IMG/VR virus record: IMGVR_UViG_3300000304_000038
DNA from: an uncultured virus (IMG/VR IMGVR_UViG_3300000304_000038)
Taxonomy: Duplodnaviria > Heunggongvirae > Uroviricota > Caudoviricetes
DNA length: 64,000 nucleotides
Reading direction: 5' to 3' (one strand)
The position numbers were made by a program, and so were the translations under genes. The notes below the pieces were generated by a model. The model was not told the origin of the DNA. It saw only the letters and a list, made by a program, of their open reading frames with translations, and searched no databases. Positions 18,979 to 61,318 of the stretch are shown here, one piece after another (within the stretch, counting starts at the first letter, position 1; the number at the start of each line of letters is the position of its first letter).

Positions 18979-19278
18979 ATGCAACTTATTCAATATATAG
19001 GGCCGTTTGCGGCGGGAAAGACTTTCAGTCTTCCCGCCCAGATGGGCTATAGATATACTCACATAGGTCTACAGGTACCATATCGTCAACCAATATCTTT
19101 GATAAATTCTGCGGCTTTGCCGATTGATATCTCAATAAATGGGGTACAATATAGAGTGAATGACAAAGACATATTGGAGTTTGATAATATGCGAGAGACC
19201 TCTTTGGAGATAGAGATAGAGGACGATTTGCCTTGGGGGAGTATCATTGATATCGCCCGCGAGGAGCAACAGGACTAA
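18979..19278 (+). CDS. Small structural protein
   Basis: About 100 aa, AGGTGA RBS; resembles the C-terminal domain of 15794-16735. Confidence 0.6.
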   Translation: MQLIQYIGPFAAGKTFSLPAQMGYRYTHIGLQVPYRQPISLINSAALPIDISINGVQYRVNDKDILEFDNMRETSLEIEIEDDLPWGSIIDIAREEQQD

Positions 19279-19293
19279 AAAGGAGGTAATGTA

Positions 19294-20814
19294 ATGCCCA
19301 ACGGCGAAGATAAGAAGAATAACTTTGTCCTGAAAGTTTGGGACAATGTAAAGCAAGAATTCAGACCAAGCTACATTGCCCCCGACGCCACGGATACCGT
19401 TCAGGGAGACGTGAAGCTTTCTGACGCAACAGATAGCATTCTTGATGCGGCGAATGGCATGACCGCCGCGACCCCAAAGGCAGTAAAGACGGTACAGGAA
19501 AATGCCAACAACAAGCTTGACAAGGTAAGTGGTGCTGACCAGACGGTTGCTTCCAAAGTGACTTTCAATGAGTCTCTCACTCTTCAAAAGGGTGCCACCA
19601 TTCCAACTGGACAATTTCTTGCTGGAAACGTAAATGGCAACGCAACAACAGCTACCACTCTACAGACGGCTAGAACGATTGCCGTCAAGAATGGCAATGC
19701 GACTCAGGGAAGTGCTAGTTTCAATGGTGCGGCTAATATCACAATCAATGTGCCGCAAATCGATGCCACCACTTTGACTGGTCTTGTTCCTATGGCATCG
19801 ATTCCGCAGGGAGCTATGGAAAGGCTCGTCAAGGTACAGAACGAGGATGCTCGTTTCGCACTCACGGCAGAAGAGGTTCAGCTTGGTGACTCTGTTTTAC
19901 AGCTCGATACACAGGTCATGTATGTGGTTGTTGACACTAACGAGCTTGATAACGCGGCGGGATACCAAGAGTACAAGGCTGGTACCGCTGTTCTTGCCGA
20001 TACCGCCGAGAGAGTCGAGAACGCTCTGACGGTTCAGAAGAACGGTGTGACGCAGTTTACTTATGACGGTTCGGCCGCACAAACAATCAACATCGCTTCT
20101 AGCTTTGCGGACTTGTCTGGACAGATTGCCGCCGACCAGATTCCTGATGGTATTATAACAGATACAAAGTTGGGAGTCAATTACGCTGGTTCTGATACCA
20201 AAGGCGGAGCGGCTACGAGCGCGAACAGACTCTCTGCCGCAAGGACGATTTCTCTGACAGGAATCATCACAGGCAGCGTCGAGTTTGACGGTTCTCAAGA
20301 CGTATCTCTCACTTCCACTCTTGGAAACGGTGTGATTCAGACGAATCATCTTGCCGATGATGCCGTTACCACAGACAAGCTTGGCAACAGCTCGGTCACG
20401 AGTGCTAAGATTGTTGACGGTACCATTACCGGCACGGACATAGCGAATTCTACCATCACTGGTGGTAAGATTGCAACCGATACCATCACCGCAGGAAACA
20501 TCGCCGCAGGAGCCGTTGGAACGAGTGAGATTGCGGCCAACGCAGTGACTTCTGCGAAGATCGCGGCTGGCAATGTTGGCACAACTCAGCTTGCAGATGG
20601 GTCTGTTACTTCNNNNNNNNNNNNNNNNNNNNNNNNNNNNNNNNNNNNNNNNNNNNNNNNNNNNNNNNNNNNNNNNNNNNNNNNNNNNNNNNNNNNNNNN
20701 NNNNNNNNNNNNNGTACCATTGCTCTTGGAGATTTATCTAATACTATTGGTACGGTAGTTGTCTCTAGCTCAGAACCGAGTGACAGTCACGTGTTGCTTT
20801 GGGTGAAACCATAA
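19294..20814 (+). CDS. Tail fibre protein (contains an assembly gap)
   Basis: 'AT..VQGDVKLSDATD.....AATPKAVK' fibre repeat, 'AT.L.TARTI...G...GS..FDGS' repeats, 10-aa 'VT..KIA.G' repeats; ends LWVKP. Confidence 0.85.
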   Translation: MPNGEDKKNNFVLKVWDNVKQEFRPSYIAPDATDTVQGDVKLSDATDSILDAANGMTAATPKAVKTVQENANNKLDKVSGADQTVASKVTFNESLTLQKGATIPTGQFLAGNVNGNATTATTLQTARTIAVKNGNATQGSASFNGAANITINVPQIDATTLTGLVPMASIPQGAMERLVKVQNEDARFALTAEEVQLGDSVLQLDTQVMYVVVDTNELDNAAGYQEYKAGTAVLADTAERVENALTVQKNGVTQFTYDGSAAQTINIASSFADLSGQIAADQIPDGIITDTKLGVNYAGSDTKGGAATSANRLSAARTISLTGIITGSVEFDGSQDVSLTSTLGNGVIQTNHLADDAVTTDKLGNSSVTSAKIVDGTITGTDIANSTITGGKIATDTITAGNIAAGAVGTSEIAANAVTSAKIAAGNVGTTQLADGSVTXXXXXXXXXXXXXXXXXXXXXXXXXXXXXXXXXXXTIALGDLSNTIGTVVVSSSEPSDSHVLLWVKP

Positions 20815-20839
20815 AAGACGGAGATGAAAGGAGAAAGTA

Positions 20840-20942
20840 TTGAACAAATTTGTAATTAGTGACCTTCGTGGGGGGGCAATACCGTGTAGGTAGCCTCAAA
20901 GATAGATTCAATTCACCTTCTCTTGGAGGTGATAGATTATGA
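20840..20942 (+). promoter_or_regulatory. Leader ORF 1 with G7 tract (currently out of frame) and RBS-occluding hairpin
   Basis: AAAGGAG RBS, TTG at 20840. With G7 (20870-20876) it stops at TAG 20891-93; with G6 or G9 it reads to TGA 20940-42, overlapping the ATG of tip 1. TCACCTTC can pair with GGAGGTGA. Confidence 0.6.
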
Positions 20943-21377
20943 TAGACCAACAGAACATGCAGGTCAAGAATGGTTCTACTTGGCATACTATCTGTCCCTT
21001 CCCCGTGGGTTTCATATATCTTGCGGCCACATCGACCAGTCCGGGAATCACTTTTGGTGGAACTTGGGCGGCTCTTTCTAGCGGCTATTTTCTAAGACCT
21101 GCTGGAACTTTTAGTGGTACTGGCGGAGAAGCTACGCATACTTTGACAACTGACGAGATGCCTGCACACTCACATCATGGAGGTAGTTTTGGTAGAACGA
21201 TAAAGGAAGCCTCCTCTTTCGGCGTAGTAAAATCAGAAAGTTTCGCTAATAGGGTTCTAGTCTTTTTAGGTACTAGTTCCCCCGATACTGCTATAAGCAC
21301 CACTATCAACGGGGGGGGCATCTTACAACAATCTGCCGCCTTATCAAAATGTGTTTGGATGGAGAAGAACTGCCTGA
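20939..21377 (+). CDS. Tail-tip/receptor-binding cassette 1 (Gp10_C-like), frameshifted at a G8 tract
   Basis: 'CPFPVGFIY...P...FGGTW...GGEATHTLT.DEMP.HSH'. The conserved ending ASYNNLPPYQNVFGWRRTA* lies in the +1 frame after G8 at 21311-21318. Confidence 0.85.
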
Positions 21378-21396
21378 CAGGAAGTTGGTGGTCTAG

Positions 21397-21807
21397 GTGG
21401 CTACCATAAATTATTTTGATGGTGCGGTTTGGGATGATGCGATTCACCCTGTTGGTAGCTTTTATTTTAGCATAGAGTCCACTAGTCCATCTAGCTTATT
21501 TGGCGGTCAATGGACTCAGATAACTGGCGCGGCAATTCGTGGGGCAGAAGAGATGGGGTATGTTGGTAGCGATACTCATACGCTAACTTTGGCAGAGATT
21601 CCTTCACACCGTCACGTAAGTTCTAACTATTGGGGAGTTGTCTGTTCTCAAGGAATGAACACGGGAAACTTGAATGCCACTTATGTCAGTAACAGCAGTG
21701 GTAATCTTCTGTACGGAGGTTATGTGTTGAACTGGGAGGGGGGTGGGGCTGCTCACTCTATTCTTCAACGTTCCTTCAACTGTTACATCTGGTATCGTAC
21801 AGCCTAG
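21397..21807 (+). CDS. Tail-tip/receptor-binding cassette 2 (Gp10_C-like)
   Basis: 'HPVGSFYFS...PSSLFGGQW...THTLTLAEIPSHRH...GGGAAH...WYRTA'. Confidence 0.85.
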   Translation: MATINYFDGAVWDDAIHPVGSFYFSIESTSPSSLFGGQWTQITGAAIRGAEEMGYVGSDTHTLTLAEIPSHRHVSSNYWGVVCSQGMNTGNLNATYVSNSSGNLLYGGYVLNWEGGGAAHSILQRSFNCYIWYRTA

Positions 21808-21819
21808 ATAAAAGATTCG

Positions 21820-21873
21820 CATAATAATATGCCGCAATATCAATCTTGTTGCTGTTGGCGTATAATATCATAA
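21820..21873 (+). pseudogene. Orphan cassette C-terminal fragment
   Basis: Encodes HNNMPQYQSCCCWRIIS*, homologous to the cassette ending HNNMPPYRNCYCWYRTA*. Confidence 0.7.
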
Positions 21874-21930
21874 TCAAAAAATGAATCTATCTTATATTGC
21901 AAAAATTCTTTAGAAAAGGTGATATAAGAT

Positions 21931-22014
21931 ATGATATTAGATAAATTCACCTCTCTCTGGGGGAAGAGCATAGTCTATAGCTATGCGGCTTCCCAGATTG
22001 GGGGCTGCGCATGA
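21931..22014 (+). promoter_or_regulatory. Leader ORF 2 (27 aa), coupled to cassette 3
   Basis: AAAGGTGA RBS; MILDKFTSLWGKSIVYSYAASQIGGCA*; its TGA overlaps the cassette 3 ATG (ATGA). Confidence 0.6.
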
Positions 22015-22433
22015 TAGAACTTCAAAATATTCAAGTAAATAATGCGTCTGTTTGGAATACCATTTGTCCTTTCCCTATTGGATTCATTTATATGAGCGCC
22101 AATAGTGACAGTCCTAGCCTTCTTTTCGGAGGAACATGGAACCCAGTGACAGATGGTTATATGTGGAGACCAGCAGATAGTTGGAACGATACAGGCGGGG
22201 AATCAACTCATACTCTTACATATAACGAGCTGCCACGGCATAATCACCTTGCCAATTCTTGGTGGATGGGCAATGGTAGCATTCCTGTTCGCTCTACTGG
22301 TTGGGCTTATCGAGACAGTGGTACATCCACCGCAAATCCGCAAAATATAGGTACTTATAATTCCGGTGGGGGGGGGCCACACAACAACATGCCGCCCTAT
22401 CGCAACTGTTACTGTTGGTACAGAACAGCCTAA
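22011..22433 (+). CDS. Tail-tip/receptor-binding cassette 3 (Gp10_C-like), in-frame G9 tract
   Basis: Same conserved N- and C-terminal motifs as the other cassettes; G9 at 22368-22376. Confidence 0.85.
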   Translation: MIELQNIQVNNASVWNTICPFPIGFIYMSANSDSPSLLFGGTWNPVTDGYMWRPADSWNDTGGESTHTLTYNELPRHNHLANSWWMGNGSIPVRSTGWAYRDSGTSTANPQNIGTYNSGGGGPHNNMPPYRNCYCWYRTA

Positions 22434-22455
22434 ACCATGAAGTAGGTGCTGCCAC

Positions 22456-22875
22456 ATGATAAATCTTCAGAATGTGCAGGTAAAGAATGGCAGCACTTGG
22501 CAAAAAATATGTCCGTTCCCCATTGGCTTTGTATATAGCAGTTATACTGATGTCTCGCCGGGTTCTACATTTGGTGGAACGTGGACACCTATCACGGGAC
22601 GGTTCCCGTACTTCAACGCGGGAACCGATACGGGCGGCTCGAACTCCATCGTGCAGACCATCGAGCAGATGCCGAGGCACGACCACCCGACGGATTGGCA
22701 GAGTTTCAACGAGTACATGGTGCATTCAACAGGGACGGAGCCGCAAGCGACGAGTTATAACGCTGTGTATTGGTACGTCAAAGAGAGCACAACTGTTGCC
22801 CCGCAGGGCGGCGGTCAGCCGATGAACAATATGCCCGCATATCAGACTCTATACGCATGGAGACGAACAGCCTAG
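22456..22875 (+). CDS. Tail-tip/receptor-binding cassette 4 (Gp10_C-like), GC-rich core
   Basis: Same motifs; ends MNNMPAYQTLYAWRRTA*. Confidence 0.85.
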   Translation: MINLQNVQVKNGSTWQKICPFPIGFVYSSYTDVSPGSTFGGTWTPITGRFPYFNAGTDTGGSNSIVQTIEQMPRHDHPTDWQSFNEYMVHSTGTEPQATSYNAVYWYVKESTTVAPQGGGQPMNNMPAYQTLYAWRRTA

Positions 22876-22914
22876 ACTATATTTATCTAATATCCTTTAT
22901 CGAAAGGATATTGT

Positions 22915-23007
22915 TTGATTATGATTCAAATAGCAATTAGTGAGCTGCTTAGGGAGGAGCATAAAGTAAGTCTTTCCCCAAGCAGTTCTATTGGTGGTGA
23001 TATATAA
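22915..23007 (+). promoter_or_regulatory. Leader-like ORF 3 with no downstream cassette
   Basis: AAAGGA RBS inside the hairpin 22889-22912; TTG 22915 / ATG 22921 MIQIAISELLREEHKVSLSPSSSIGGDI*, resembling leader 1 (..ISDL..SPSLGGD). Confidence 0.45.
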
Positions 23008-23040
23008 GCCCTAGTCTTTATGGCTAGGGCTTTTTCTTTT
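23006..23040 (+). terminator. Rho-independent terminator closing the cassette array
   Basis: AAGCCCTAGTC / GGCTAGGGCTT followed by a T-run. Confidence 0.8.
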
Positions 23041-23126
23041 TATACCAAGGGCATATTCTAGCAAAATAATCAGGGCGGTTTTCAGATGTATTAGGTATGT
23101 TTCTAGATAACAGGAGGGAGAAAATA

Positions 23127-23663
23127 GTGGAACCACTTACTGCTCTTTTCTCTCAAATGTCCATTGAATCAATAATCTTGTTTATTGGTGCAATTCTTCT
23201 TGCGGCGAAGGCTATGAGTGAGGTTATGGACTGGGCATATTTCAAACTAAAAAAATACTTCAATGTCAAGTCTCAGAAGGAAGAGAAACTTGACGATATC
23301 ATTGAGAGACTAGACCGTTCGGAAAAGCGCTCTATCAAAAGAGACGAGAGAGTGGCTAACATAGAGAATCAGATAAACCTCATTCAGAACCGACTACAAG
23401 ACAGCACCCGCAGTTATATAATCGACAAGTACCATTATTATGTCCAAGAGCTGGGGGTGATAGACGAAGCCGCCTTACAAGACATTGAGAGACGATACTT
23501 ATATTACAAGGAGGCGGGCGGCGATACGTTCATAGAATTGCAGATGGAGAAATTGAGGAACTTACCTCTGGTTACTCCTGAGCAGATAGCCGCAGACCGC
23601 AAGGAACACATATCCAAATTACATACTCTCTTGGGCGAGAAAACAAGTGACGATGGGAGGTAG
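23127..23663 (+). CDS. Membrane protein, possibly holin-like
   Basis: AGGAGG RBS with GTG start; one N-terminal TM helix, coiled coil, 'Y..YK.AGGD' tail. Confidence 0.55.
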   Translation: MEPLTALFSQMSIESIILFIGAILLAAKAMSEVMDWAYFKLKKYFNVKSQKEEKLDDIIERLDRSEKRSIKRDERVANIENQINLIQNRLQDSTRSYIIDKYHYYVQELGVIDEAALQDIERRYLYYKEAGGDTFIELQMEKLRNLPLVTPEQIAADRKEHISKLHTLLGEKTSDDGR

Positions 23664-23666
23664 CGA

Positions 23667-24317
23667 ATGCCCAATCAAGAATTGAAAACTTTTACCGTAA
23701 ACATGAAGTCTCTTGGGCAGGATATCGATGACCCCATCGTACAAGGTGGCGGTGATGCTAATGGCCGCACGTTTAGAATCATCTTCACCCAAGAGGCCGC
23801 AGAGATGTTCACGCCAGAAACAAAAGTATATTTGAAATGGCGGCATCAGCAGTTGAATGTGCGGGGATACAACGTGTTTACCCATGTCCAAGGAGATGGC
23901 TCTTGCTGCTTTGAGCCTCCAGTTTGGGAGATACATTGGCCCAAGGCAATGCTCCATGAGGGGGATGTGCTTTGCCGCATAGAAGTCGTTGACGATATCT
24001 CCATTGCTCCCTCTACTAACTTCATTGTCCATGTGCTTGCGGACCCGGACGATGGTAGCAATTTCGTCGTAAGTGACGATTACACCCTCTTCCAGCAAGC
24101 AGTTATTGATATGAACTCAACTGTAGACAAGGCTGAACAACAACTCCAAGAACAAGTAGAGGAGTTTGATGCCATGCGGCAGGAGTTCGACGGAATGAGG
24201 CAGGACGTTTCTACTGCCCTAGATAAGGCAAACCAAGCCTATGATATGGCGCAAGAGGCATTAGACCAGATTGGCGAGAAGACAACGGCAACTGGTATTT
24301 ATATGAATGAATATTAG
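23667..24317 (+). CDS. BppU-like baseplate upper protein
   Basis: 'IVQGGGDANGRTFRI' N-terminus followed by a coiled coil. Confidence 0.6.
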   Translation: MPNQELKTFTVNMKSLGQDIDDPIVQGGGDANGRTFRIIFTQEAAEMFTPETKVYLKWRHQQLNVRGYNVFTHVQGDGSCCFEPPVWEIHWPKAMLHEGDVLCRIEVVDDISIAPSTNFIVHVLADPDDGSNFVVSDDYTLFQQAVIDMNSTVDKAEQQLQEQVEEFDAMRQEFDGMRQDVSTALDKANQAYDMAQEALDQIGEKTTATGIYMNEY

Positions 24318-36416: not shown

Positions 36417-39400
36417 TCATTATTTTATTTCCGACCCTTATTAGGGTACCAATTAGAGGAATCCTCTATTTAGTAGAGGTTTACACTAGTTTAGGGGCAT
36501 TTCCACAGGGATAACCCCGTCACCCGTCTTAGCTGTTGGATATGTTCACTACCGCATTCAGGGCATGATTCATTGAATTCGTCAGTGTATCCACAATCTA
36601 GACAAGTATCATTGGGTACGTTGATAGCAAAGTAAGGAATATCTTTGTCCATAGCATAATTGACAATAGTTTCAAGTCCATCGATATTATTCTTTACACT
36701 GCCCTCTAGCTCGACATAGGTAATGCAACCTGCTGAGCTATAATTTGTAAGTTGAGATTCAATATCTATCTTTTCAAAAGGAGTTAGCTTTTTCCAAACA
36801 GGAACATGGATACTATTTGTAAAATATTCCTTGTCAGAAACATTTGGAATAATGCCGTATTTTGCTTGGAATTTTTTCATTGCGGTTTTACATAAATTTT
36901 CTGCCTTTTTGTTTGGACTATATTTTCATCGCACTTCTCGTGCGAGGCTACCCTTTCGTTTTTTTACGACTCTACTTTACCTTATCGGATTTCGATAGTC
37001 TCTACGCATTTATTACTCGTTGTAAAAAATATGTGCCACTTTTAGTTTTTGTTTTTGGCTTCCAGCCATTGTTACACTGTTGCCCGATTGTCTTTTCGTT
37101 TATTCCTGTTTGTCTAGAAGCTTCTTGTGCGTTCCAATATCTTCCTATCTCTTCATCAGTATAATAATCATACTGTATTATAATTGGGGGCGGGCATATT
37201 GACTTATCATCTTGAAACCTAAAATAAAAAGGTTTTCTTACCGGTTTTTTATATTTACATTGCCGCATAATAGTATTTACACTTATTCCGGTTTCTCGAT
37301 TAGCTTCTCTGGCACTCCCGTATCTTCCTAGTTCTTTATTTGTATAAGTATCAAACATCACAACAGGATGTGACTGAGAATCTTCGTATCCTTTGGCGTT
37401 TACTGCCAGACCATCATCAAATGCTTTCTGGGTGTTTTCTTTTGGTGTGGTCCAATATAAGTTTTCTACGCGATTATCGGATTTTATATTGTTTTTATGC
37501 CCGACAATAGGAAAGTTGTTTGGGTTATCTAAAAAGGCTTCTGCTACAAGAATATGAACTCGTCTTTGTCTATTTTGATAAATTTCCGCAGATATTTGAT
37601 ATTTTATTGGCGCATACACATATCCATTATGTTTATTGGTTATCAAACTATATTTGAAATATTCTCCATAATGTGCGTGAGGAGTTTTTATATCTTTGCG
37701 CCATCTATTTGGGACTGTACGAGTTTCAATTCCGTAGACCTCTCCACGAGGAGTTATCCAGCAGAGAGAATTTGGGATTTGTTTTGCATCTTTTGGTAAT
37801 TCTTGAACATAATGTGCCATATTACTCCAATCTTTTTTATTTGATATATGGCACTTTTTTACGAGTAAAATTAGCTCGGTATTCCTTTCGGTTCACCGAA
37901 TTAGGTAGCTTTCACAAAGTATTTTGCAATACTAAGCCCCCACAGAAGTTATATGTTACTCTCAGGGGTAAAATAAACTCCGAAATTTAGTTGATATTGA
38001 ACTTTGAATTCTTTACAACGTTGTTGAAACAGACTTTCAATTCTTTTTGCTAGGACCATTCCTTCTTCTGTAGTTTGGTCTGTCCCAATAAGAAGTTGCA
38101 AAGTTTCTGCAAGTCCAAGCTGTCCAAGAGCAAGAGTACCGTGTTTTAGGGCACTTCTAATACCTTCTTCTGGCATATATCCATACATAGTGCCATTTTC
38201 GTACATAAATTTAGCCGCTTCTGGAGGCTGAGAACAAATATATTCAAATCTTTCAAGAAGCATATCTTTTGCTTCATGTATTTTTTTGTCCAATAGAGTC
38301 ATAAATTTTTCTACATCTCTATCGGCTTCCATAGCAAGCGTCGGCATGATGATAGTCACAGGGCAGATATTTCCGCGACCATCTTTTAGTTGACCAAACC
38401 CGTTTATATCAAAACCGTTATAAGTTCTACAACCCATCGTAGCTGTATAAGTTCTTGGGTCATTACGGTCATATCCTTTATTCACTGACCAATCCACATT
38501 CACATAGTTAGGATATAGCCGCAAGGCGGTGGACTTCAGAGCTAGTCTGAACATATCATAGTTTGGTTCTCCCGGCTTACGATTCACACCTTTCATACAT
38601 TGAAAAATACCACATGGGAAGATACTTGTTCTATGAAGCTTTCCTAATCCTTCGATAGAAACTTCAAGCAAAGCCTTGATTACCATTCTGCCTTCTGGAA
38701 GAGTACAAGTACCATAGTTGATGCTAGTAAAAGGCAGTTGGTTGCCACTTCGAGATTGAAGGGTATTTAGATTGTGATACATTCCCTCTACCGCTTGGTG
38801 AGTCTCTTGGATAGTTTTATCCATAGCATATTTATATGCTATAGGATAGCGTTTATACAATGGATGTTCAATAGAATGAGATGTGACAAAAGTCCGATAT
38901 TCTTCTTTTGTGCGGCCCATACATTTATTAGCTAAATGGAGTTCGATTTGTTCGTTGTCCATACATTCACAATACTTCAGCCCATCAATAAAATGTTTGC
39001 CAAAACTTTTTCGGACATATGGAACCATCGTCCAATCAAGATGCGTGGCGGCTACACCGCCAAATTGCATAAGACTCTGCAACTGAAAGATTACTGCCAC
39101 TAATTGAAACGCGGTGTTGATTGAGTTGGCTGGCCGCACATCTGTTTGGCGAGTATTGAATCCTTTAGCGAGCAAATCATCAAATGGGATAGATAGGCAA
39201 TTATGGTCTCCAAGAGCGTAATGAGAAAGGTCGTGGATATAAATTTCATTGTTGAGATGATTATCACGAGACTTTTTACTCATTAGGTGATTGAGAGCAT
39301 ATTCTCTGAGCACCTCGTCTGCAACCTCCCCCATGCGGCCTCCGAATGAATGTTCATCTACATTGGCGTTTTGATTTTGCACATTAGAAGCAAAAAGCTT

Positions 39401-39736
39401 TGTGGCAATGCGATTGTCATAATCTTCTTTTTCTTTCTCCTGCCGTTCAAGCTCGTGTAGATATCTATAACGAATATACGCTTTAGCTACGTTATAGTAT
39501 CCTTTCTCCATCAGCACATGCTCTACGATATCTTGAATCTTCTCTACCGTGATAGTATCTCCAAGAGAGTCTTGCAAATGAATATAACTTAGAACTGTGC
39601 TGAGGATACTTTCATCATAGCAGTCTCTTTGCCCTATCTCTTGGAAGGCCCCATCGATTGCTCGCTTGATTTTGTCTTTATCAAACAATACTTTGCGGCC
39701 ATCGCGTTTTATAACATATTTACTCAATCGCATCAC
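35685..39736 (-). CDS. nrdD: Class III ribonucleotide reductase, three exons (39736-37964, 36904-36514, 35782-35685)
   Basis: ATP cone, 'IYIHD', 'GCR'. Splicing restores YFTP|AENLCKT and RRVTG-Y|LTGDYK (glycyl radical loop). Confidence 0.93.
35783..36513 (-). mobile_element. Group I intron nrdD-I2
   Basis: 5' exon ends in U, intron ends in G; GCAGAGACTA...ATAGTCC P7 elements; removal restores the frame. Confidence 0.88.
36905..37963 (-). mobile_element. Group I intron nrdD-I1
   Basis: CCU| ... AAAAAG| boundaries; GTAGAGACTA...ATATAGTCC core. Confidence 0.88.
37002..37820 (-). CDS. Intron-encoded HNH homing endonuclease with NUMOD1-like repeats
   Basis: 'VHILVAEAF..N...VGHKNNIKSDNRVENL.W'; two 'RY.SA.EA.R.TGI' repeats. 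Confidence 0.88.
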   Translation of the reverse strand: MAHYVQELPKDAKQIPNSLCWITPRGEVYGIETRTVPNRWRKDIKTPHAHYGEYFKYSLITNKHNGYVYAPIKYQISAEIYQNRQRRVHILVAEAFLDNPNNFPIVGHKNNIKSDNRVENLYWTTPKENTQKAFDDGLAVNAKGYEDSQSHPVVMFDTYTNKELGRYGSAREANRETGISVNTIMRQCKYKKPVRKPFYFRFQDDKSICPPPIIIQYDYYTDEEIGRYWNAQEASRQTGINEKTIGQQCNNGWKPKTKTKSGTYFLQRVINA

Positions 39737-42557: not shown

Positions 42558-45500
42558 TCAGTCCTCCCCGTAGCGTTTATCCGTCCCTCTGAGAATATAT
42601 CCCTTGTAAAGCTCTGTTATCTTGTATATCTGCGGATAGACGGACTTCTTTCTTGAGCGGCATCTGAACATGTCACCGTTTCGCCATCCAGTGAGCATGA
42701 GAAGCGTGCCGCGATTGAACCAACTATTTTCGACAACCTTGTTCTCGCCGTCTACGATATCACTTATGCGGCGATTGTACTTTGCAAAATATTCAAGATT
42801 GAACTTTACTGTGACCACGCCAGACTCCGGTGTTAGCAAGTCAACCGTAGCCTTGGTATTATTCTTCCCAATAACTGTTCCGGCTATACGGCTCAGCTCA
42901 TAAATAGGAATTTCCCTTCCGTTCTTACTAAAAGTATACTCCACCTTGGGTTCACTTGTCAACGAGGAATATGGAACGACACCATAGGCCGCAAAGTCAA
43001 CATTAGCAAGTTCGTGGTCGTGGTAGTAGTAACCAAGGCTGTCCATCTCCCAAGTCGAATAGGTTCCTTGTGCGTACTTTTTCCATTGCTCTTGGAAGAG
43101 AACGTCATTGAAGGCGTTGAGAAGTTCCTCTTGATGCTCTTGGATATATTTCTTTGCTGGTTCCATAGCCTTCGTATAGAGCTTCTGCCATGTCTTCTGC
43201 GGAATGACGGTTGTTCCCTCGTATGGCTCCAAGAGGTCTAAGTCAAAGAACTGCTCGTAGAAGTCATAATAGCTATAGTTTATCACGTAGTAGTCTTTTA
43301 GTTTCTTCTTTGCGCGCAGAGCTTTGTTGAATACGAATACTCTCCTTTGAAATTCTAGCTCTTGCGGCAAAAGTCCGAGGTCAACAAGTCCCTTGAAATT
43401 CTGTAGAGTAAGACGCTTCTTTGGTTCGCTCGCTCGCCGCAAATATTGTTCCATCAAATCCTTGCGCTCACCGAATTTGTCGAATGCGCCAGATTTGATT
43501 AGAGCAATAATCATGGTCTTGTTAGAAGAAGTCACTTTGGATTCAAAATCCTCGATGGAAGTGTATGGACGATTCTCGATTATCTCTTGGATAGCCTCAC
43601 CACCAACACCTGTCAGTGACTTCATACCATAATAGATTGAGTTGGTAGCTTCGTCTGGCTCGAACATATAACCTGAGCGGTTGATATCCACTGGAAGGAC
43701 TTTGATATTATGGTGTTGGATATCTCCCACAGCTTTGGAAACCTTAGTATAGACCGTTGAAGAGTCTTCATCAAGTCCGCTGGTGACTCGAAGATACGCT
43801 GTGTTCCAATAGACGGAAGGAAAATAGGTTGCTAAATATGCGGCCTGAACTGCGATGTAAGAATAGCTGGTTCCATGAATCGAGGAAAAAGAATAACCCA
43901 TACTCGGTTGTAGTAAGAACCAAACATACTTTCCCATCGCAGGGCTGGTAGCACGGTCAAAAATCTTTTGCCGTTGTAGGGGGATTTCGTCCATATGCTT
44001 CTTGGCGACAGTTTTTCTCAAAGCGTTGCTTTCTTTTAGACTAAAGCCGCAAATCCTATCATCCATAACGATACGCATTAGCATTATATACTTCAACTTT
44101 CATTGAAGAGTAGACTATACCATCTTTACATCATAGCAAAGTCCCCATTATAGTCGTTGAACGTCCCTCTGAGCTAGAGGTTTCGATGCGTCTGGTTGCC
44201 CAATCCTTAGCGATGTTACCTTACCTTGGTCGCTAACCTCGCCGCTAATATATCCCTATATTAGTTTGGTTGCTAAGGCTCTAAGGGTATTCCCGCAGTT
44301 TAGGGGATTTATAGAGTGCCTAATACTTGTTCAAAAACTAACTTTTTTCTCGTAAGATATCGGTATTCGGTCTGATTGTAAAAAGCATTATATAAGAATC
44401 TCATATTTTCTCTATGATTATATCCAGTTCCTATTTTGAGCTGATACAAAGGCCGATTGACATTTATATTGTGTTGCGTTGTATATGGTCTTTTATATTC
44501 GCCTTGCATATTTATAAAAATCGAACTGGGATATGGGAGTATTGAAGAGAATTTTTGTTTGATTTGTTCTTCAAACTTTATATCTCCAACTATAGATATT
44601 CCCGGAGAGTGCTTGTATGGATGTACCGTTCCATCCCCATCAAAATACCCGTGGAAGAAAGAAAGAAAAAGATTGTCATTTTGTATAATACGAGAGTCAA
44701 TATAATTTTCTATAGAACTCTTATTTTGAACAATCCCATATTCAGTAACAAAAGTATGAAAGTTTTGTTGTTGAATAGTTATCGCAGCGCTTCTGCCGTG
44801 ATGCCCAAGATAGATTCTTTCTTTTCTTAGTCCTAATGTGTTACAAAAGTTATATAAAATCTCTATATCATCTATTTTTACTTCAAGAATAAGACGTTTA
44901 GGGCCATCTATCTTCTTATAGTCTTGAGGGGCAACACATCCATCTGCCATAATATATCCGAGCCAATATGCTCCCAATGTGGATAGCGGTTCATCAAATA
45001 GATTGAACGTTCTTATAATCTTTTCTGTAACATCAGGAAAAACATAATAGTCTTCTATTTTTCTATTTCTTTTTTGAAACCATTTTTCTGCGACACCCAG
45101 CTTTTTAGAGATACTATAAATACTAATAGGAGTATTATGATTCTCTATAAATAGTTCTAATGCTAAATCAGCGATTTCTTTATTATCTATCTCACGTTTG
45201 CCAATAAACATAATAATCATCTCCTTCACTTGTAAGATGATTATTATATACCCACTAGAAATATATTTTATACACAGGTTGACACTCTTGGTCAATTAGA
45301 ACTCCGTTACGAACGTATTTCTTGATTACGTTTTGCTCTTCTTTTGTCAAACCATAAGCATCCATCTCTTTATCCCATTGTTCAGGATGATTCATTATTC
45401 TAACATATCTATCAGTAGGAGTTTCGCCGCTATCATCTGCCATAAGCCGCATAATACCATTGCAGTCGTTCAAAGTTTCTATGTCTCTTGGAAGAAGCTT

Positions 45501-47797
45501 CTTGACTGTTTGTGAGCCTACGTCTGACACAAGTTGGAATAGGGCAAGAATATCTGTACTGTCAACAGCATCCCAGAGTTTATCATCGTTCATTGGCAAA
45601 ACATCTGGTGATACATACTTGTCATATGCTTGCCGCAAAGTTAGTTCTGGCTCAATCTTACCGTGCTCTTGGAGAAGTTTGATACACTGAGCCATAATAT
45701 CCATTTGCTGAGTTACAAGAATATCTACTTTGGTAGTTCCAGCATACTCTTGGTCGTGGAGTGACCATTGGGTAATAATCGAACCGTCTTTTGCTTTCAT
45801 AAAACAAGCTTCAGAATAAGGGTCATCATTATCGTAGAACCCCACTCCAGATGCGTGGATAGAACGATTTTGGATAAGTCCTTCTATTCCAAGCAAAATC
45901 TCTTTCAATCCCGGATACAGATTCACAACTTTGATAAACTCCTGAGACGGCTTTCTTCCTTTTTCTTGATTGCCATAGAAGCAATCTGACAAGCTATATA
46001 AGAAACCTCTCTCTTGGGGGACAAGACTTGAAAGATATTCTGCTTCATCTAACTCAATTCCATCTGGACAATCATTACTTCTATATCCTCGTGCGGCTAT
46101 TTTGATAGCTGCCTTGGTGGAGATAGTTCCATAAGTACAAATCTGTACGCATCCTAACTGACCTCGCTCTTCTCTAATCTTCTCAAAAACCTTTGGCCGC
46201 AAAGTGGGAGAGATATCAATATCAATCCTAGTTACCCTCGGTTTCCCGATATTTATTAGGGGAGTGGACTATACCATCATCCGTTCTGGATGGGCGTTGG
46301 TAGTCTCTACGGGCTTCTCTTGCGAGCTGTCCCACGGGATTGTCTTGCTCTTATGAGTTTAGATTTTCCCCGTTATTCCGCCTTTGCTTAGACTATTCCT
46401 AGTCTAAGGGACAAGTATGTTTATCCGGTAACTCGATACGCTCCTTATTGAGAAAACGCCAATAGGCAAAATGATGTTTGATTGGGTCAAGGCCAGTTAC
46501 ACCTAATAGCCAATGATTGAGACCAGCAGCCGCAGAGCCTCGTGCTACTCCAATAGGTGAACCAACGTCCCATATCATATCAATATAGTGTTGAAGAAAA
46601 TTAGGATAAGCAAAAATACAAGTATCAAGATGCTGACCAACATAATCCATAATATCAGCTTCGTATTCAAGCCGTTCGAGATAAGTATCACAGCCTAGAT
46701 GCTGAGGACTCAGATGCCGCAAATTTAGTTCGTTCTGACATTCGTTTATCCAATAGCGTTCTTGGGGGTTCTGTGAATGCATTAGTTTGTCAAGAGTAGG
46801 ATATTTTTCTTTATCATAGAAGTGATGATTTTCTGGCTCTATTGGATAGTTTGGGACTGGAGCTTCAACAATATGTTGATTTTTATGAAGAGTATAATAT
46901 TCACATCTATCATATATCTTCATAGAGTTAGCGCAAAGCTCTTCGTAATCAAGCCCAATACCTTCTAGGTTCTCTCTGATTTCTTCTTCGGATTGAAGAT
47001 ATGCATAAGCATAGAAAGAATCTACTTCTCTATCTCCTTCTTTGGAGTTTAGAAGAGCTTTGTGAACATATCTATCTTCTTTGCGGAGATAGTGACTGTC
47101 GCAAGTAACGCAGATAGGGAGGTCGAAAGCCTTAGCGATTGCCCCCATTCTTTTGTTTACAATCAACTGCTCTTCTGACCTCGCAGGTTGGACCTCAAGA
47201 GAGAAGTTATTATCTCCATAGGTATTCTTGCACCAAAGGAGAAAATCAACAATGTCCCTGTGAGCTTGGTTCATTTCTGCGGCGTTTCCGATAATCTCTG
47301 CCTCATGCAAATCAAGAATACGTTTGTCCAAGAATGATCCCAGGCAGGCACTTGATCCGTATATGTGTCCCTGTCCATATTTTTTGATAACAGCTTCTAT
47401 TTCAGAATAAAGAGTAGGGACTCTTTCTCCTCTGTCAAAATAGCTTTGTATCCAAGATTGAGAGGAAAGCTCTCTTAGCATCTTATGTCCCGTGGCATCC
47501 AGAGCCAAGAGTATGTGATGGTAGTATTGCTGTCCAGAGCTTCTATCTTTTGTGAGATATATCTCGTTTCCGCGAACAATCTTGAAGTCAGGATATTTTT
47601 CTTTATATTCTTCCTGAAGGCGGTCTAGCTCTACATGAGCACCAAGACTTTCGTGATCGGTAAGTCCTACGCCCGCAAGTCCTAATTCAATTGCTCTATC
47701 TATAAGTTGTCTTGGTCTGTTAGTTGCATCGAGAAGTCTGATGTTAGACCTAAGAATAGTGCGAGTGATTGTGAAAATCAAGCCTCGGCACTATCAT
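42558..47797 (-). CDS. dnaE: DNA polymerase III alpha: exons 47797-46423 (with 7 extra nt at 47749-47755), 46226-45282, 44081-42558
   Basis: PHP 'HNHSHYS', 'TDH', 'RGSAA', spliced 'ELPD|IDID', 'SIHASG', 'DQEC|LM', 'YSFS..H..SY', HhH and OB regions. Confidence 0.92.
44082..45281 (-). mobile_element. Group I intron dnaE-I2
   Basis: UGU| ... AUAAUG| boundaries (inferred); TTCAACGACTA...GTATAGTCTA core. Confidence 0.82.
44309..45213 (-). CDS. Intron-encoded LAGLIDADG homing endonuclease
   Basis: 'AYWLGYIMADG' and 'FFHGYFDGDG' motifs; start uncertain. Confidence 0.88.
46227..46422 (-). ncRNA. ORF-less 196-nt group I intron dnaE-I1
   Basis: GAU| ... CUAGG|; AATCCCGTG, GTAGAGACTA, GTATAGTCC; removal restores PDIDID. 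Confidence 0.88.
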
Positions 47798-58296: not shown

Positions 58297-61200
58297 TCAA
58301 GCTATATTTTTTCCTACACTCCCAAGCTTGCCACAGACCTTGTTTCCTTTATTAGTCAAAACGGCTTGCTCGATTCTGTCATTCGCCGCAAGCTTCATCG
58401 CCTTGCGACCGGGACTTGCCTTGGCAAGAAGGGAAACATCATCAACGTTCAACAGCAGTTGCTTCTTTGTGGTTGTCAATGCAAGGCACTCGTAGTCCTC
58501 GCAACATTGGATACCGACAACCTCAGCCGCATCGTGAAGTTTGACAATCGGCATACCCTTTAGATTCTGGGTGGCGCCATTCAGATCACTTGACTTCACT
58601 CTCTTGGAATAGCCATCACTTGTCGTAATTATGATGCTATCTTCGCATCGAGGGGTGGTGAACGTCACGATTCTTTCTTGCGGCTGGAAGTCTAGAATGG
58701 TACCAAGAGCTGTTCCCTTGTCAGAGTTCAAGCATTCCTTGAACGTAGATGTCTTTACCCTGAATGCCCGTCCAAGAGACGAATAGAATACGACAAGTTC
58801 GTTGTTCTCTACCTTCTCCTCGCGGACGTTATTAGGACTCGTGCGGAACTTGGCAACCGGGACGGACTTTACGTAGCCGTTCTTGTCGAGACATATGATT
58901 ACGCTGTGCGGCAGTTCCTTCTGCTTTTCTTTTGGAGACTTCTTCTGAATCTCCTTGTTGATTACTTGCGTGCGGCGCGGAGTTCCAAATTCCTCTGCGA
59001 GATTGACAAGCCTCTCAATGAGAATGTCTTTTTGTGCCTCTTTAGACTCAACAATAGTCTGTAGTTTCTTTGCAAGCTCTCTTTTGGCCGCAAGTTCATC
59101 TAGAATCTCTTGTTTTTCTAGATGGGCAAGTCTACTTAGTTTCAAGGCAAGGATAGCATCCGCTTGTCTTTCTGTCAAACCTAGTTTGTTAGTCATATAT
59201 GCTTTTGCGTCAGCCGCGCTCTTGGAGCTTCTGATTAGCTTGATAACGTTATCAATCCCATTATAGGCACGCTCTAATCCTTCAAGAATCTCTATCCTAT
59301 CGAGAGTCTTATCTAGGTCAAATTGATATTCTCTCTTGATACAGGATAGATTATGATCTTTGTATATGCGGCATACGTCCTCTAGGTTCAGAAGTGTTGG
59401 TGTCTTAGAGACAACAGCCATCTGATTTACATTTATCTGTGTTCTGAGCGAGGTATATTGAAATAGCTCTTCTAGTAGAGTTTGCACTTTGGCCGCAGAC
59501 GTAGCTTCCACCACAAGAAGGGTTCTCTTCTTGTCTGTTCTATTGGAACAGTCAGCGAAACCATCAAGCTTTCCCTCTTCATAGGCTTTTTTGATTTCTT
59601 CTACAACAGGTTCAATATAGACTTGGTGTGGAAACTCTGTGAAGTATATCTCCTTACCGACAAGCTCATATCTAGCTTCTAGAATGATGCGGCCTTTGCC
59701 GGTTTGGTTTATCTTCCCAAGCTCGTCTTTGTTGATGATAGTACATCCTGTTGGGAAATCTGGGTAGTAACTATCATTTTCTACTTCTGATGTTTTCAGA
59801 TAATTGACCAGAAGATTTGCGGTTTCTTGAAAATTATGGAGCGTCCATACATTTGCGACAGATACTCCGATGCCCTGCGAACCATTTACCAATAGACGTG
59901 GGAAGATAGCAGGGAGAACCGTTGGCATTTCTTCGTCTTCTGAGAAGTTGAGCATCATGTCAACCGCATTCTTATTGATACCATCCAAGAGACCTTGCTC
60001 TGTTATCTTAGAAAGCCGCACCTCCGTATATCTATCTGCGGCGAAAGCATCAGAGCCGAGAACAACGTTTCCGTTTGCACCGTGGAAATCAATCTCAGGA
60101 TTGTTATTGGTAAATGGCTGAGACATATGGACAAAAGTCTCGTAGATTGCCTGTGTCAATTTTTGTTATCCTAAAGGCTTTTTATCCTTTAGTTCTTATA
60201 GTTTCCTATAAGGTCGGCATATCTTTTCTATTATATATAAATAGTTGCTGTCTCTTGGAAGGATTATATTCTCTTGCGAGTTTCACCTTCTATGCTCTGC
60301 CCCTGACTAAAATGTTACCTTTAGCCTTCGGTTCGGGTTAGCATAGCTTTTATAAGCTTTAGCCTTCCCGCTTAGTACAGCAATTTTAGCACGGCACACA
60401 GTTTTTTCTTTTTAGATATAGTTGGTACTTTCTGTCTAAATAGATATCTGCGTGTTGATACAAGATATCTAGTGCTCTATTAGCTAGTTTTTTTGAAGTA
60501 ATATTGAAGCGATATATGGTTCCGTGTTTGAGGATATTATTTGGAATTTTTTCTATCAAAGTTTTTTCAAAAAAATTTTTGACATAGAGACAGGTTTCAA
60601 AAGAACCTACTATACCAATTCTATCGTCATAAGTGCTAATATATCCATCTCCGTCAAAAATTCCTCTAACATAGGCAGCAGCAAGATTGTTATCGCCTAA
60701 AATAGTAGGTATTTCTTTACCACTTTTTGCACCAGATAAGCCATATTGCGATAGATTTTGAACAATATTTTTATTGCTTATTTTGATTACGTGGCACAGA
60801 TTATCTTGAGTATACGCCCCACCGCTACAATCTTTGATAATATGATTAGAGTTATACCCTAAATATTTAGCAAATTTTTCTAAATGTCTTTTATCTTTAT
60901 GAGCCAGTTTGATTTGTAATAAAGGTTTTTTGTCACTATCGGATACATATCCATCTGCTAAAATAAAACCCAGCCAATAAGCATCTTGTTCATTTTGGAT
61001 TCTATCAAACGCATTTGTATTATAACTATATCTCATTTTTCATACCCATCTCTAATCTTTTTGGGTATAAGAACAAACTGTTTTTATTCTACCGTGCGGC
61101 CACCAGTTAGCTGCAACTCCGCCGTCTACCTTTGCAGACTTTACGTGCGGCTTCTTTGAGGAGTATCCTTTGGTATACATCTCCCAAAGAATGCACCTTT

Positions 61201-61318
61201 GCCCAGCTTTCAATCCATCGCGTGCGTCTGGGAAGGCACGATTGGTGTTTGTGTCGTAAGAGAAGTCAATAAAGTTTTGACTTACCTCTTGGACAACATC
61301 TATTGATTCGTTAGTCAA
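58297..61318 (-). CDS. gyrA: Type IIA topoisomerase subunit A, two exons (61318-61091, 60156-58297)
   Basis: 'RAFPD.RDGLK..QR', 'KSA', spliced 'PHG|TQAIY', catalytic 'AADRYTE', 'PDFPTG'. Confidence 0.92.
60157..61090 (-). mobile_element. Group I intron in gyrA
   Basis: GGU| ... AUUG|; GCAGAGCATA / AGATATGCC P7 pair. Confidence 0.85.
60386..61036 (-). CDS. Intron-encoded LAGLIDADG homing endonuclease
   Basis: 'AYWLGFILADG', 'YVRGIFDGDG', 'YLDRK'. Confidence 0.9.
   Translation of the reverse strand: MRYSYNTNAFDRIQNEQDAYWLGFILADGYVSDSDKKPLLQIKLAHKDKRHLEKFAKYLGYNSNHIIKDCSGGAYTQDNLCHVIKISNKNIVQNLSQYGLSGAKSGKEIPTILGDNNLAAAYVRGIFDGDGYISTYDDRIGIVGSFETCLYVKNFFEKTLIEKIPNNILKHGTIYRFNITSKKLANRALDILYQHADIYLDRKYQLYLKRKNCVPC

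Follow-up and report, generated by a model that had tools for sequence, protein, structure and literature searches.

An array of receptor-binding tip genes behind poly-G leader reading frames in an uncultured phage, with candidate long-range RNA pairing between its units

The travel of a ribosome along a short leader open reading frame (ORF) picks between overlapping RNA pairings in leader-ORF attenuation (ermC/cat) and in trp-type hairpins, and in MS2-type RNA phages the long-distance "Min Jou" interaction couples translation of the replicase to that of the coat. Invertible tail-fibre segments are represented by the Gin/G segment of Mu, Cin of P1 and the R64 shufflon. In this study, we analysed an array of tail-tip genes and short leader ORFs in a 64,000-nucleotide stretch of DNA from an uncultured virus (IMG/VR record IMGVR_UViG_3300000304_000038; the whole stretch is called the window below), in which four tip genes in two units lie behind a tail-fibre gene. 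We propose that the array works as a contingency locus for receptor-binding tips that is wired through translation, with long-range RNA pairing as a relay between units; judged from sequence comparison and modelled folds, this statement as a whole has about an even chance of being correct. One component, a poly-G-gated leader with translational coupling into the cassette behind it, is likely, and the phage probably varies which tips are made.

Sorensen et al. (2021, Cell Rep 35:109214) reportedly found poly-G tracts in receptor-binding protein genes of Fletchervirus phages. Hypermutable tracts of this kind in Campylobacter Fletchervirus phages are summarised in bioRxiv 10.1101/2025.10.21.683753 and resemble the present case in that tracts of G7-G11 lie in host-recognition genes and give subpopulations with different receptor-binding proteins; cassettes 1 and 3 of the window likewise carry tracts within the gene. 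Unlike the Fletchervirus genes as portrayed there, most tracts here lie in separate mini-ORF leaders that would gate a downstream gene by coupling, and the arrays consist of stand-alone tips in an unrelated phage, with units tied by long-range RNA complementarity. The same source describes contingency loci in phages T2 and T4, with which the present array would share homopolymer slippage as reversible bet-hedging in lytic phages; those loci differ in frameshifting the gene itself. Coliphage tail-fibre genes are depleted in simple repeats according to that study (10.1101/2025.10.21.683753), whereas repeats are concentrated in the tip array here.

The cassettes fall in the same family, PF21939 (Gp10_C), as the C-terminal head domain of T4 gp10/gp12 but, unlike these proteins, are free-standing, ~140 residues long, without a fibre shaft and arranged in arrays. 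As in the ermC, cat and trp systems, ribosome travel on a leader would choose the pairing, one alternative masking a downstream ribosome-binding site (RBS); the differences are that the input here would be a heritable tract length and not stalling, that the pairing partner is 1-2 kb off and not tens of bases, and that the modules are chained along the array. The array shares with Min Jou a long-range intramolecular pairing that would tie the start of one gene to ribosome traffic in another, but there upstream translation opens the start, whereas here the reverse would hold, on the mRNA of a DNA phage. With Gin, Cin and the shufflon it has in common alternative receptor-binding ends and inverted repeats around a variable segment; unlike in those systems, no recombinase was found, no alternatives lie in opposite orientation and no inverted forms were seen. 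The combination is one of a contingency locus with leader-ORF translational control, both of which are known kinds of component. Neither the gating of tip cassettes by leader ORFs with G tracts nor pairing over kilobases between such units was found described in the open-access literature text searched.

Leader reading frames, poly-G tracts and tip cassettes

The leaders and cassettes of the window, all on the plus strand, are as follows.

20840 to 20942, plus strand: leader 1, with a TTG start at 20840; the ORF as assembled with G7 spans 20840-20893 (LNKFVISDLRGGAIPCR, with the stop at 20891-93)
20870 to 20876, plus strand: poly-G tract of leader 1, G7; +G, +AG or +AGG at this place in related chicken-gut contigs
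20939 to 21409, plus strand: cassette 1, Gp10_C tip (PF21939, E 4e-8, N-terminal part only), frameshifted at the G8 tract 21311-18
21397 to 21807, plus strand: cassette 2, Gp10_C tip (E 2.3e-12)
21931 to 22014, plus strand: leader 2 (MILDKF...), with G5 only; its TGA overlaps the cassette-3 ATG, and it holds arms at 21933-46 and 21970-77
22011 to 22433, plus strand: cassette 3, Gp10_C tip (E 1.5e-14), with an in-frame G9 at 22368-76
22456 to 22875, plus strand: cassette 4, Gp10_C tip (E 1.9e-10), without a G tract
22922 to 23007, plus strand: leader 3, a vestigial paralogue of leader 1 (73% identity) with a degenerate G tract and no cassette

All four cassettes matched Gp10_C at 34.7-55.5 bits, against a gathering threshold of 27. 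They aligned with the C-terminal ends of longer tail proteins and were 36-45% identical to streptococcal prophage structural proteins and to the "antireceptor" of Lactobacillus phage Ld3. Because the Pfam cut-off was passed and the alignments lead to tail-protein C-termini and an antireceptor, the four cassettes are free-standing receptor-binding head domains, in agreement with the first-pass annotation, which had called them tail-tip genes from the sequence alone.

Relatives were collected in three ways. A search with the fibre protein retrieved contigs of 131 and 144 kb (L001 and L002) and three metagenome contigs (L082-84); a fibre alignment scan gave one 130-kb contig (L136), which is binned in a Prevotella metagenome-assembled genome and was not taken as host evidence; and cassette alignment gave 51 further loci, many on 125-147-kb contigs. 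The survey set for the cassette hidden Markov model (HMM) comprised 57 loci with 188 hits, with 2 to at least 11 cassette copies per locus. Fibre orthologues with 61-70% identity occur in L001, L002, L082-84 and L136, each with a cassette array behind it. The general layout in the relatives is a leader ORF with a G7-G11 tract, in which two frames stop just past the tract, followed by an arm, a hairpin over the cassette Shine-Dalgarno sequence, the cassettes and a composite arm; the latter closes each unit and is complementary both to the arm of the upstream leader and to the start of the next one. Relatives at 80-99% identity were compared as contigs, not raw reads, of four chicken-gut runs; these contigs covered 5-9% of sampled words and are uninformative on rare variants. 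No RNA run was among the sequencing runs listed as containing the sequence.

In the window, poly-G tracts occur in leader 1 (G7), cassette 1 (G8) and cassette 3 (G9). Homopolymers of at least 7 bases, among those listed for the 57 loci, were all G on the coding strand, with no C, and they lay either in short intergenic leaders or in the GGG motif of the cassettes. With G6 or G9, the frame of leader 1 would run to the TGA at 20940-42, which overlaps the cassette-1 ATG (ATGA); with G6, it would read on through QYRVGSLKDRFNSPSLGGDRL and end on that ATG. The N-terminus MNKF..., followed by poly-G, is kept in the leaders of other lineages. In leader 1 (G6 frame) and leader 2, and also in relatives, the ORF has its own Shine-Dalgarno sequence and ends at or near the cassette start. 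A total of 26 leaders were listed, and a start codon with a Shine-Dalgarno sequence was found for 23. In 22 of these 23, exactly one of the three tract lengths lets the leader ORF reach the cassette, that is, end no more than 20 nt ahead of the residue at which the cassette HMM match begins; at the other two lengths, the leader stops 3-30 nt past the tract. As assembled, 7 of the 22 leaders are in frame ("on") and 15 are "off". A systematic "+1" offset of all tracts, which would hint at programmed frameshifting, was ruled out by the 7 of 22 leaders in frame.

The tract lengths are the fastest-changing feature of the arrays, with the caveat, which applies to every such difference and tells against our reading of it, that homopolymer lengths may be miscalled in assemblies. 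Contigs L085 and L087 show no substitution in 9,503 aligned bases and differ only by two single-G indels, one in the G9 tract of a leader and the other in a shorter run of G. Over 4,000 bases, a single substitution and a single poly-G indel distinguish L001 from L084, and L082 differs from L002 at several G tracts. Both the leader-1 and the cassette-3 tracts of the window vary in the chicken-gut contigs, the latter having one base fewer in runs X3 and X5 and a C>G change at 22377 in X1 and X2. The first-pass annotation had taken leader translation as the input of the switch, which understates that input, since a hypermutable poly-G tract would set whether ribosomes read through past the arm. 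Interrupted, "locked" tracts also occur: leader 1 of L090 is fixed off and its leader 2 on, and leader 1 is fixed on in L094, L097 and L103. Leader 2 of the window is fixed in frame because its G tract is only G5, and the arrangement of a variable leader 1 with a fixed in-frame leader 2 recurs in L095.

The tracts within cassettes 1 (G8) and 3 (G9) appear to add a second, independent on/off layer. Minus one G, cassette 1 would end in ...GWRRTA at 21377; its off-frame tail overlaps the start of cassette 2, and its +1 frame, ASYNNLPPYQNVFGWRRTA, is the conserved C-terminus of the cassette family. Cassette 2 is missing from related contigs of X1 and X5 (joint 21437->21846). The central parts of cassettes 1 and 4 (21147-21325 and 22592-22838) are swapped for unrelated sequence of similar length in contigs of X1, X3 and X5, with the ends kept, so that the tips are mosaic with a hypervariable centre. 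As for the third leader, three units had been proposed, each opened by a short leader; the three leader ORFs exist, but the third is vestigial and has no cassette. Only the terminator described below follows it, while the homologous leader in L002 precedes further cassettes. In L103 (4419-4530), leader 1 is joined to the post-tract part of a later leader, which amounts to the loss of an entire unit through recombination of one leader with another.

Complementary arms and local hairpins

The pairing elements of the window, again on the plus strand, are listed below.

20876 to 20913, plus strand: 5' arms of unit 1, GCAATA at 20876-81 and AAGATAGATTCAATT at 20899-913
20913 to 20932, plus strand: hairpin over the cassette-1 Shine-Dalgarno sequence GGAGGUG (-11.7 kcal/mol; stem CACCUUC/GGAGGUG)
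21866 to 21900, plus strand: composite 3' arm, X(B1), complementary to 20935-44 (by 21866-75), 20899-913 (by 21879-93) and 20876-81 (by 21895-900)
21885-21900 with 21919-21935, plus strand: leader-2 hairpin (-13.7 kcal/mol, z -4.0), pairing the Shine-Dalgarno GGUG and the AUG
22873 to 22913, plus strand: boundary 2, with TAGACTAT at 22873-80 over the cassette-4 stop, ATTTATCTAATATC at 22881-94 pairing with 21933-46, and the leader-3 hairpin
22888-98 with 22903-13, plus strand: leader-3 hairpin (-12.7 kcal/mol, z -3.5), pairing the Shine-Dalgarno AAAGGA

The inverted repeats that had been noted around units 1 and 2 were all recovered. In unit 1, AAGATAGATTCA (20899-20910) is the reverse complement of 21882-21893 and the match extends to 15 nt at 93% (20899-913 / 21879-893); GCAATA at 20876-81 is complementary to TATTGC at 21895-900. 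In unit 2, GATATTAGATAAAT (21933-46) is complementary to 22881-94 over 14 nt at 100%, and ATAGTCTA (21970-77) to TAGACTAT. Two further pairs had been missed, of 21866-75 with the cassette-1 start (20935-44) and of 21867-82 with the leader-3 start (22910-25). Both off-frame stops of leader 1 (20887-93) lie directly upstream of its main arm. The boundary-2 element is near-identical in L002, L082 and L136, and an exact scan of IMG/VR for the boundary-2 hairpin gave a match only in the contig of L002. An "anti-start" segment lies beside the 3' arm in the window (21866-21882), in L002 (8490-8498) and in L136 (around 10565), its target in L002 being TGATATTTT (7625-33) in the cassette-1 start region; since the segment complements the cassette-1 start, the long-range structure would also cover the start codon of a silent unit. 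Separately, a 12-mer in the fibre gene (ATTTATCTAATA, 20732-20743) is identical to the arm at 22881-92 and inverted relative to 21935-46. It was considered as a third recombination site and ruled out, as it codes DLSN and is unconserved in L001 or L002; the match is probably due to chance.

Local hairpins compete with these arms. The first-pass annotation had described local stems burying the RBSs of leaders 2 and 3, and both (TATCTTATAT 21888-97 / ATATAAGATA 21922-31, and AATATCCTTT 22889-98 / AAAGGATATT 22903-12) are present and fold as predicted. The equivalents of the cassette-1 hairpin co-vary in the relatives (CCCCU/AGGGG, CCUCC/GGAGG, CUCCC/GGGAG and CACCCC/GGGGUG) and fold at -10.8 to -15.3 kcal/mol across lineages; local hairpins overall range from -9.5 to -15.8 kcal/mol, with z from -1.3 to -5.2, and CCUC-UUUU-GGAGG-like mini-hairpins stand upstream of most inner cassettes. 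A leader ORF that reads through traverses the hairpin masking the Shine-Dalgarno sequence of its cassette, the classical layout for coupling translation by unmasking. In L098 (4393-4499), the arm and the anti-Shine-Dalgarno half of the masking hairpin are lost. Two parts make up the 3' arm: a distal one that matches the upstream leader only, and a proximal one of 4-10 nt that coincides with part of the 5' arm of the local hairpin in all seven lineages examined (in the window, 21885-900 doubles as the 5' arm of the leader-2 hairpin), which bears out the overlap proposed earlier. Because the 3' arm is shared in this way, the long-range and local pairings are mutually exclusive.

Complementarity to sequence just 3' of the unit's last cassette is found, in every lineage, in the stretch that separates the off-frame stops from the masking hairpin. 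The arms pair perfectly over 15 nt in L085 (AGACAAACCAAAAGT/ACTTTTGGTTTGTCT) and 16 nt in L086 (ATTAGATTTGAATTCT/AGAATTCAAATCTAAT), over 19 bp with one bulge in L001, over 18-21 bp with a bulge in L118 and L129 and over 17 bp with a bulge in the L132 group; those of L002 are TAGATAAACTAG/CTAGTTTATCTA, and L136, an eighth lineage, has TAGATGAACCTAT/ATAGGTTTATCTA with one G.U pair at the place equivalent to that in L002. Arm sequences are unrelated between lineages yet complementary within each. The earlier suggestion of one geometry with different arm sequences therefore extends to co-varying arms in at least eight lineages, and since these keep complementary arms at two equivalent places with differing sequences, a non-chance origin is indicated. 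For the comparison of arms, a local complementarity score replaced RNAduplex, which was uninformative on 112-140-nt segments: it strung together long interior loops, matched poly-G to CU-rich runs and scored the window worse than shuffles. For unit 1 in seven lineages, the score averaged 32.0 for cognate and 20.0 for non-cognate pairs (non-cognate maximum 34); the cognate pair was the strict maximum in 4 of the seven rows, tied in 2 and beaten in 1, and z against shuffles ranged from 2.2 (window) to 8.2. Cognate and non-cognate means were 29.8 and 19.4 for the unit-3 arms, and 25.3 and 16.0 for the post-tract arm of unit 2. We also searched the whole downstream array (1-5 kb) with each leader arm: the best complement fell in the predicted interval of 50-140 nt in 11 of 18 tests, with a chance of 1.3-7% per test, namely in 6/7 for leader 1, 4/5 for leader 3 and 1/6 for leader 2.

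These results bear on the strongest of the rival explanations, a rather unlikely one, by which the poly-G tracts and local hairpins do everything and the complementarity over kilobases is a by-product without a regulatory role, left by the duplication of palindromic boundary modules, so that the 3' half of a boundary matches the 5' half of the following one. A core (ATCTAATATC/GATATTAGAT) is indeed common to the boundaries of all lineages, and the unit-2 pair depends mostly on it; the leader arms encode a conserved peptide motif (LDK[LF] / MILD) and are hence under coding constraint; and the single-unit arrays L094, L097 and L106 retain the leader arm without a downstream partner. Against this, each lineage has its own unit-1 and unit-3 arms, which bear no relation to the core (L085, L086, L118 and L136), these arms exceed the local stems in length in several lineages, part of the 3' arm matches the distant leader only, and the downstream searches for units 1 and 3 mostly returned the predicted partner. 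The core motif itself occurs almost nowhere outside the arrays in four near-complete genomes and the window; a role as a genome-wide promoter or operator was ruled out on these grounds.

Proposed relay and its alternatives

Slipped-strand change of a tract would toggle its unit, in that leader ribosomes would either open the masking hairpin and pass into the cassette by coupling or fail to do so. With leader n off, its arm would be free of ribosomes and pair with the composite sequence 1-2 kb downstream, releasing the next leader; in the window, this pairing would also cover the cassette-1 start codon. With leader n on, ribosomes would sit on the arm, the local hairpin would form and the next unit would be shut. 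Unit 1 of the window would be the variable one (G7, now off), and unit 2, with its fixed in-frame G5 leader, the default. A role in RNA and translation is suggested by the placement of the arms, because the 5' arm comes immediately after both off-frame stops and the 3' arm spans or follows a stop codon and abuts the next RBS.

We modelled this by partition-function folding from leader 1 to leader 2 in seven lineages, with translated stretches forced single-stranded. In the "off" state, the long-range helix had a probability of 0.78 in the window (the same as in the naked fold), 0.81 in L001, 0.74 in L086 and 0.71 in L132. The mean unpaired probability of the leader-2 RBS was at least as high in the "off" as in the "on" state in 7/7 lineages, for example 0.46 versus 0.21 in the window and 0.50 versus 0.34 in L132. 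The claim that a free 5' arm opens the next RBS thus fits in direction in all seven modelled lineages, but the effect is large only in the window and L132; the thermodynamics agree with the relay in direction and are weak in size. The modelled pairing is, of the readings available, best taken as regulatory and acting as a relay.

Several observations weigh against the relay. The helix probability in the "off" state was just 0.30 in L118, 0.18 in L085 and 0.00 in L002, and a sizeable gain in accessibility was limited to 2/7 lineages. A local hairpin has already formed when its distant competitor is transcribed, and in most hairpins of the B1 type the Shine-Dalgarno sequence lies within a 22-nt loop. 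The unit-1 pair of the window, taken alone, is only weakly above chance, as its z of 2.2 indicates. For the post-tract arm of leader 2, the predicted partner was the top match in only one lineage; the main arm of that leader lies at its start codon and would therefore be translated at any tract length, which weakens a relay from unit 2 to unit 3. Mismatches in 47 helices comprised 20 G.U and 17 A.C, and thus carry no strand-specific RNA signature, and uncompensated single arm changes occur within lineages (a C.A in L090 and a helix-end mismatch in L096). At the level of the leaders, leader 1 of L085 has no read-through frame, and two leaders are "on" at once in L118 and in L085, so that exclusivity is not fixed at the DNA level.

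If the relay reading is true, lytic gut phages would have a route to diverse host recognition that needs neither a recombinase nor a diversity-generating retroelement, and leader slippage together with gene-spanning RNA pairing would rank the tip sets in an ordered, possibly exclusive choice. It would also provide a natural mRNA structure of kilobase range that controls translation in a DNA phage, and host range would be unreadable from one consensus genome because tract lengths would need counting. The compact design could be reusable as a stochastic selector in synthetic biology.

Two further explanations, each unlikely and somewhat behind the by-product account, keep the helices functional. 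The helices may be bridges for ribosome hand-off, by which a terminating ribosome re-initiates at the next leader and tests the next tract. The spacings agree with this, in that out-of-frame ribosomes would halt 5-25 nt short of the 5' arm and the following leader starts 19-39 nt past the 3' arm; the kilobase helix would bring the leader stop beside the next leader's start, where the same ribosome or subunit would re-initiate, with the caulimovirus shunt as the analogue for passage across a helix. From one loading site, the units would then be scanned one after another, and whichever leader is the first in frame would set the tips of the virion. Alternatively, stems around an untranslated unit could form an interrupted duplex of ~20-30 bp that is cut by RNase III or controls decay, in one version removing silent units or making new 5' ends; the stems flanking 16S and 23S rRNA in their precursors are a parallel. 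Such processing or stability control agrees with the combined helices of the window, ~31 bp for unit 1 (6 + 15 + 10) and 22 bp for unit 2 (14 + 8) with internal loops, which enclose whole units and would form only without translation of the unit, but the stems are AU-rich, 12-21 bp long and often bulged, and neither their overlap with the next leader's hairpin nor the position of the arms directly behind the off-frame stops is required by it.

The relay had been proposed to operate with no recombinase. No serine or tyrosine recombinase (PF00239, PF00589) was found in the two near-complete relatives (91% and 100% complete), the profiles matching in 12 and 14 of 14 reference genomes used as positive controls, nor among the 58 window ORFs scanned. 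Cassette orientation was uniform within loci for 187 of the 188 HMM hits, the single misoriented hit lying in L117, an unrelated two-hit locus without G tracts; no inverted cassette was seen inside the arrays and no strand-changing joint in the contigs of the four chicken-gut runs (contigs only). Thus, although each unit lies between inverted repeats of 12-21 bp, with arms that agree in each pair but change from pair to pair, DNA inversion with these repeats as crossover sites of the shufflon or Gin/Cin type is very improbable, because no recombinase was found and the cassettes are co-oriented, and also since inversion would turn cassettes antisense to the sole transcript and remove the start of leader 2, and several pairs contain 1-nt bulges.

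Transcription context and phage background

Two features frame the array.

19294 to 20814, plus strand: tail-fibre gene, 506 aa (Pfam Phage_fiber_2 and several PHROG tail-fibre families)
23006 to 23032, plus strand: intrinsic terminator at the end of the array, the only convincing plus-strand terminator in 19200-23700

A sigma-70 scan found no plus-strand promoter-like sites at the leaders or unit boundaries; the sole plus-strand match (9/12) lies inside cassette 3 (22215-22244). The terminator and the lack of a boundary promoter are consistent with a single transcript that includes the fibre gene. In L086, L090, L106, L118, L128, L129 and L132, a hairpin resembling an intrinsic terminator (tgggcaaa...tttgccc, then a run of T) and a stretch rich in AT lie directly 3' of the fibre gene and separate it from leader 1, and in these loci the array may be a transcription unit of its own, unlike in the window. 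Rfam 15 gave no family at the gathering score over the locus, and three sub-threshold matches all fell on the terminator region (22939-23042). Within the tail-fibre gene of the window, 101 bases are masked as N (20613-20713), and its C-terminal third is not fully readable.

The phage of the window was read as large and lytic from its structural genes, endolysin and replication module, with a GC content of ~42%. The endolysin (Amidase_2/SH3/CW_7) is typical of phages of Gram-positive bacteria. In cultured phages, no DNA similarity was found to the tip array or to a neighbouring gene for a 739-aa protein, and locus searches with cassette 3 alone or the 739-aa protein alone gave no match. In the more distant arrays L104 (3640-5009) and L116 (1172-2442), tip cassettes alternate with other small ORFs; their conserved start context, ttatgataataaat, is a different one, and poly-G leaders stand before some cassettes only.

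The replication module comprises NrdD, a DnaE-type polymerase and gyrase, interrupted by homing-endonuclease ORFs. These minus-strand genes are split (36491-39736, 42558-47781 and 60386-63424 of the window): nrdD is in 2 pieces with an HNH/NUMOD1 ORF between them, the polymerase gene is in 3 pieces with a LAGLIDADG ORF, and gyrB is in 2 pieces, also with a LAGLIDADG ORF. The interruptions of nrdD, the polymerase gene and gyrB are likely introns or inteins.

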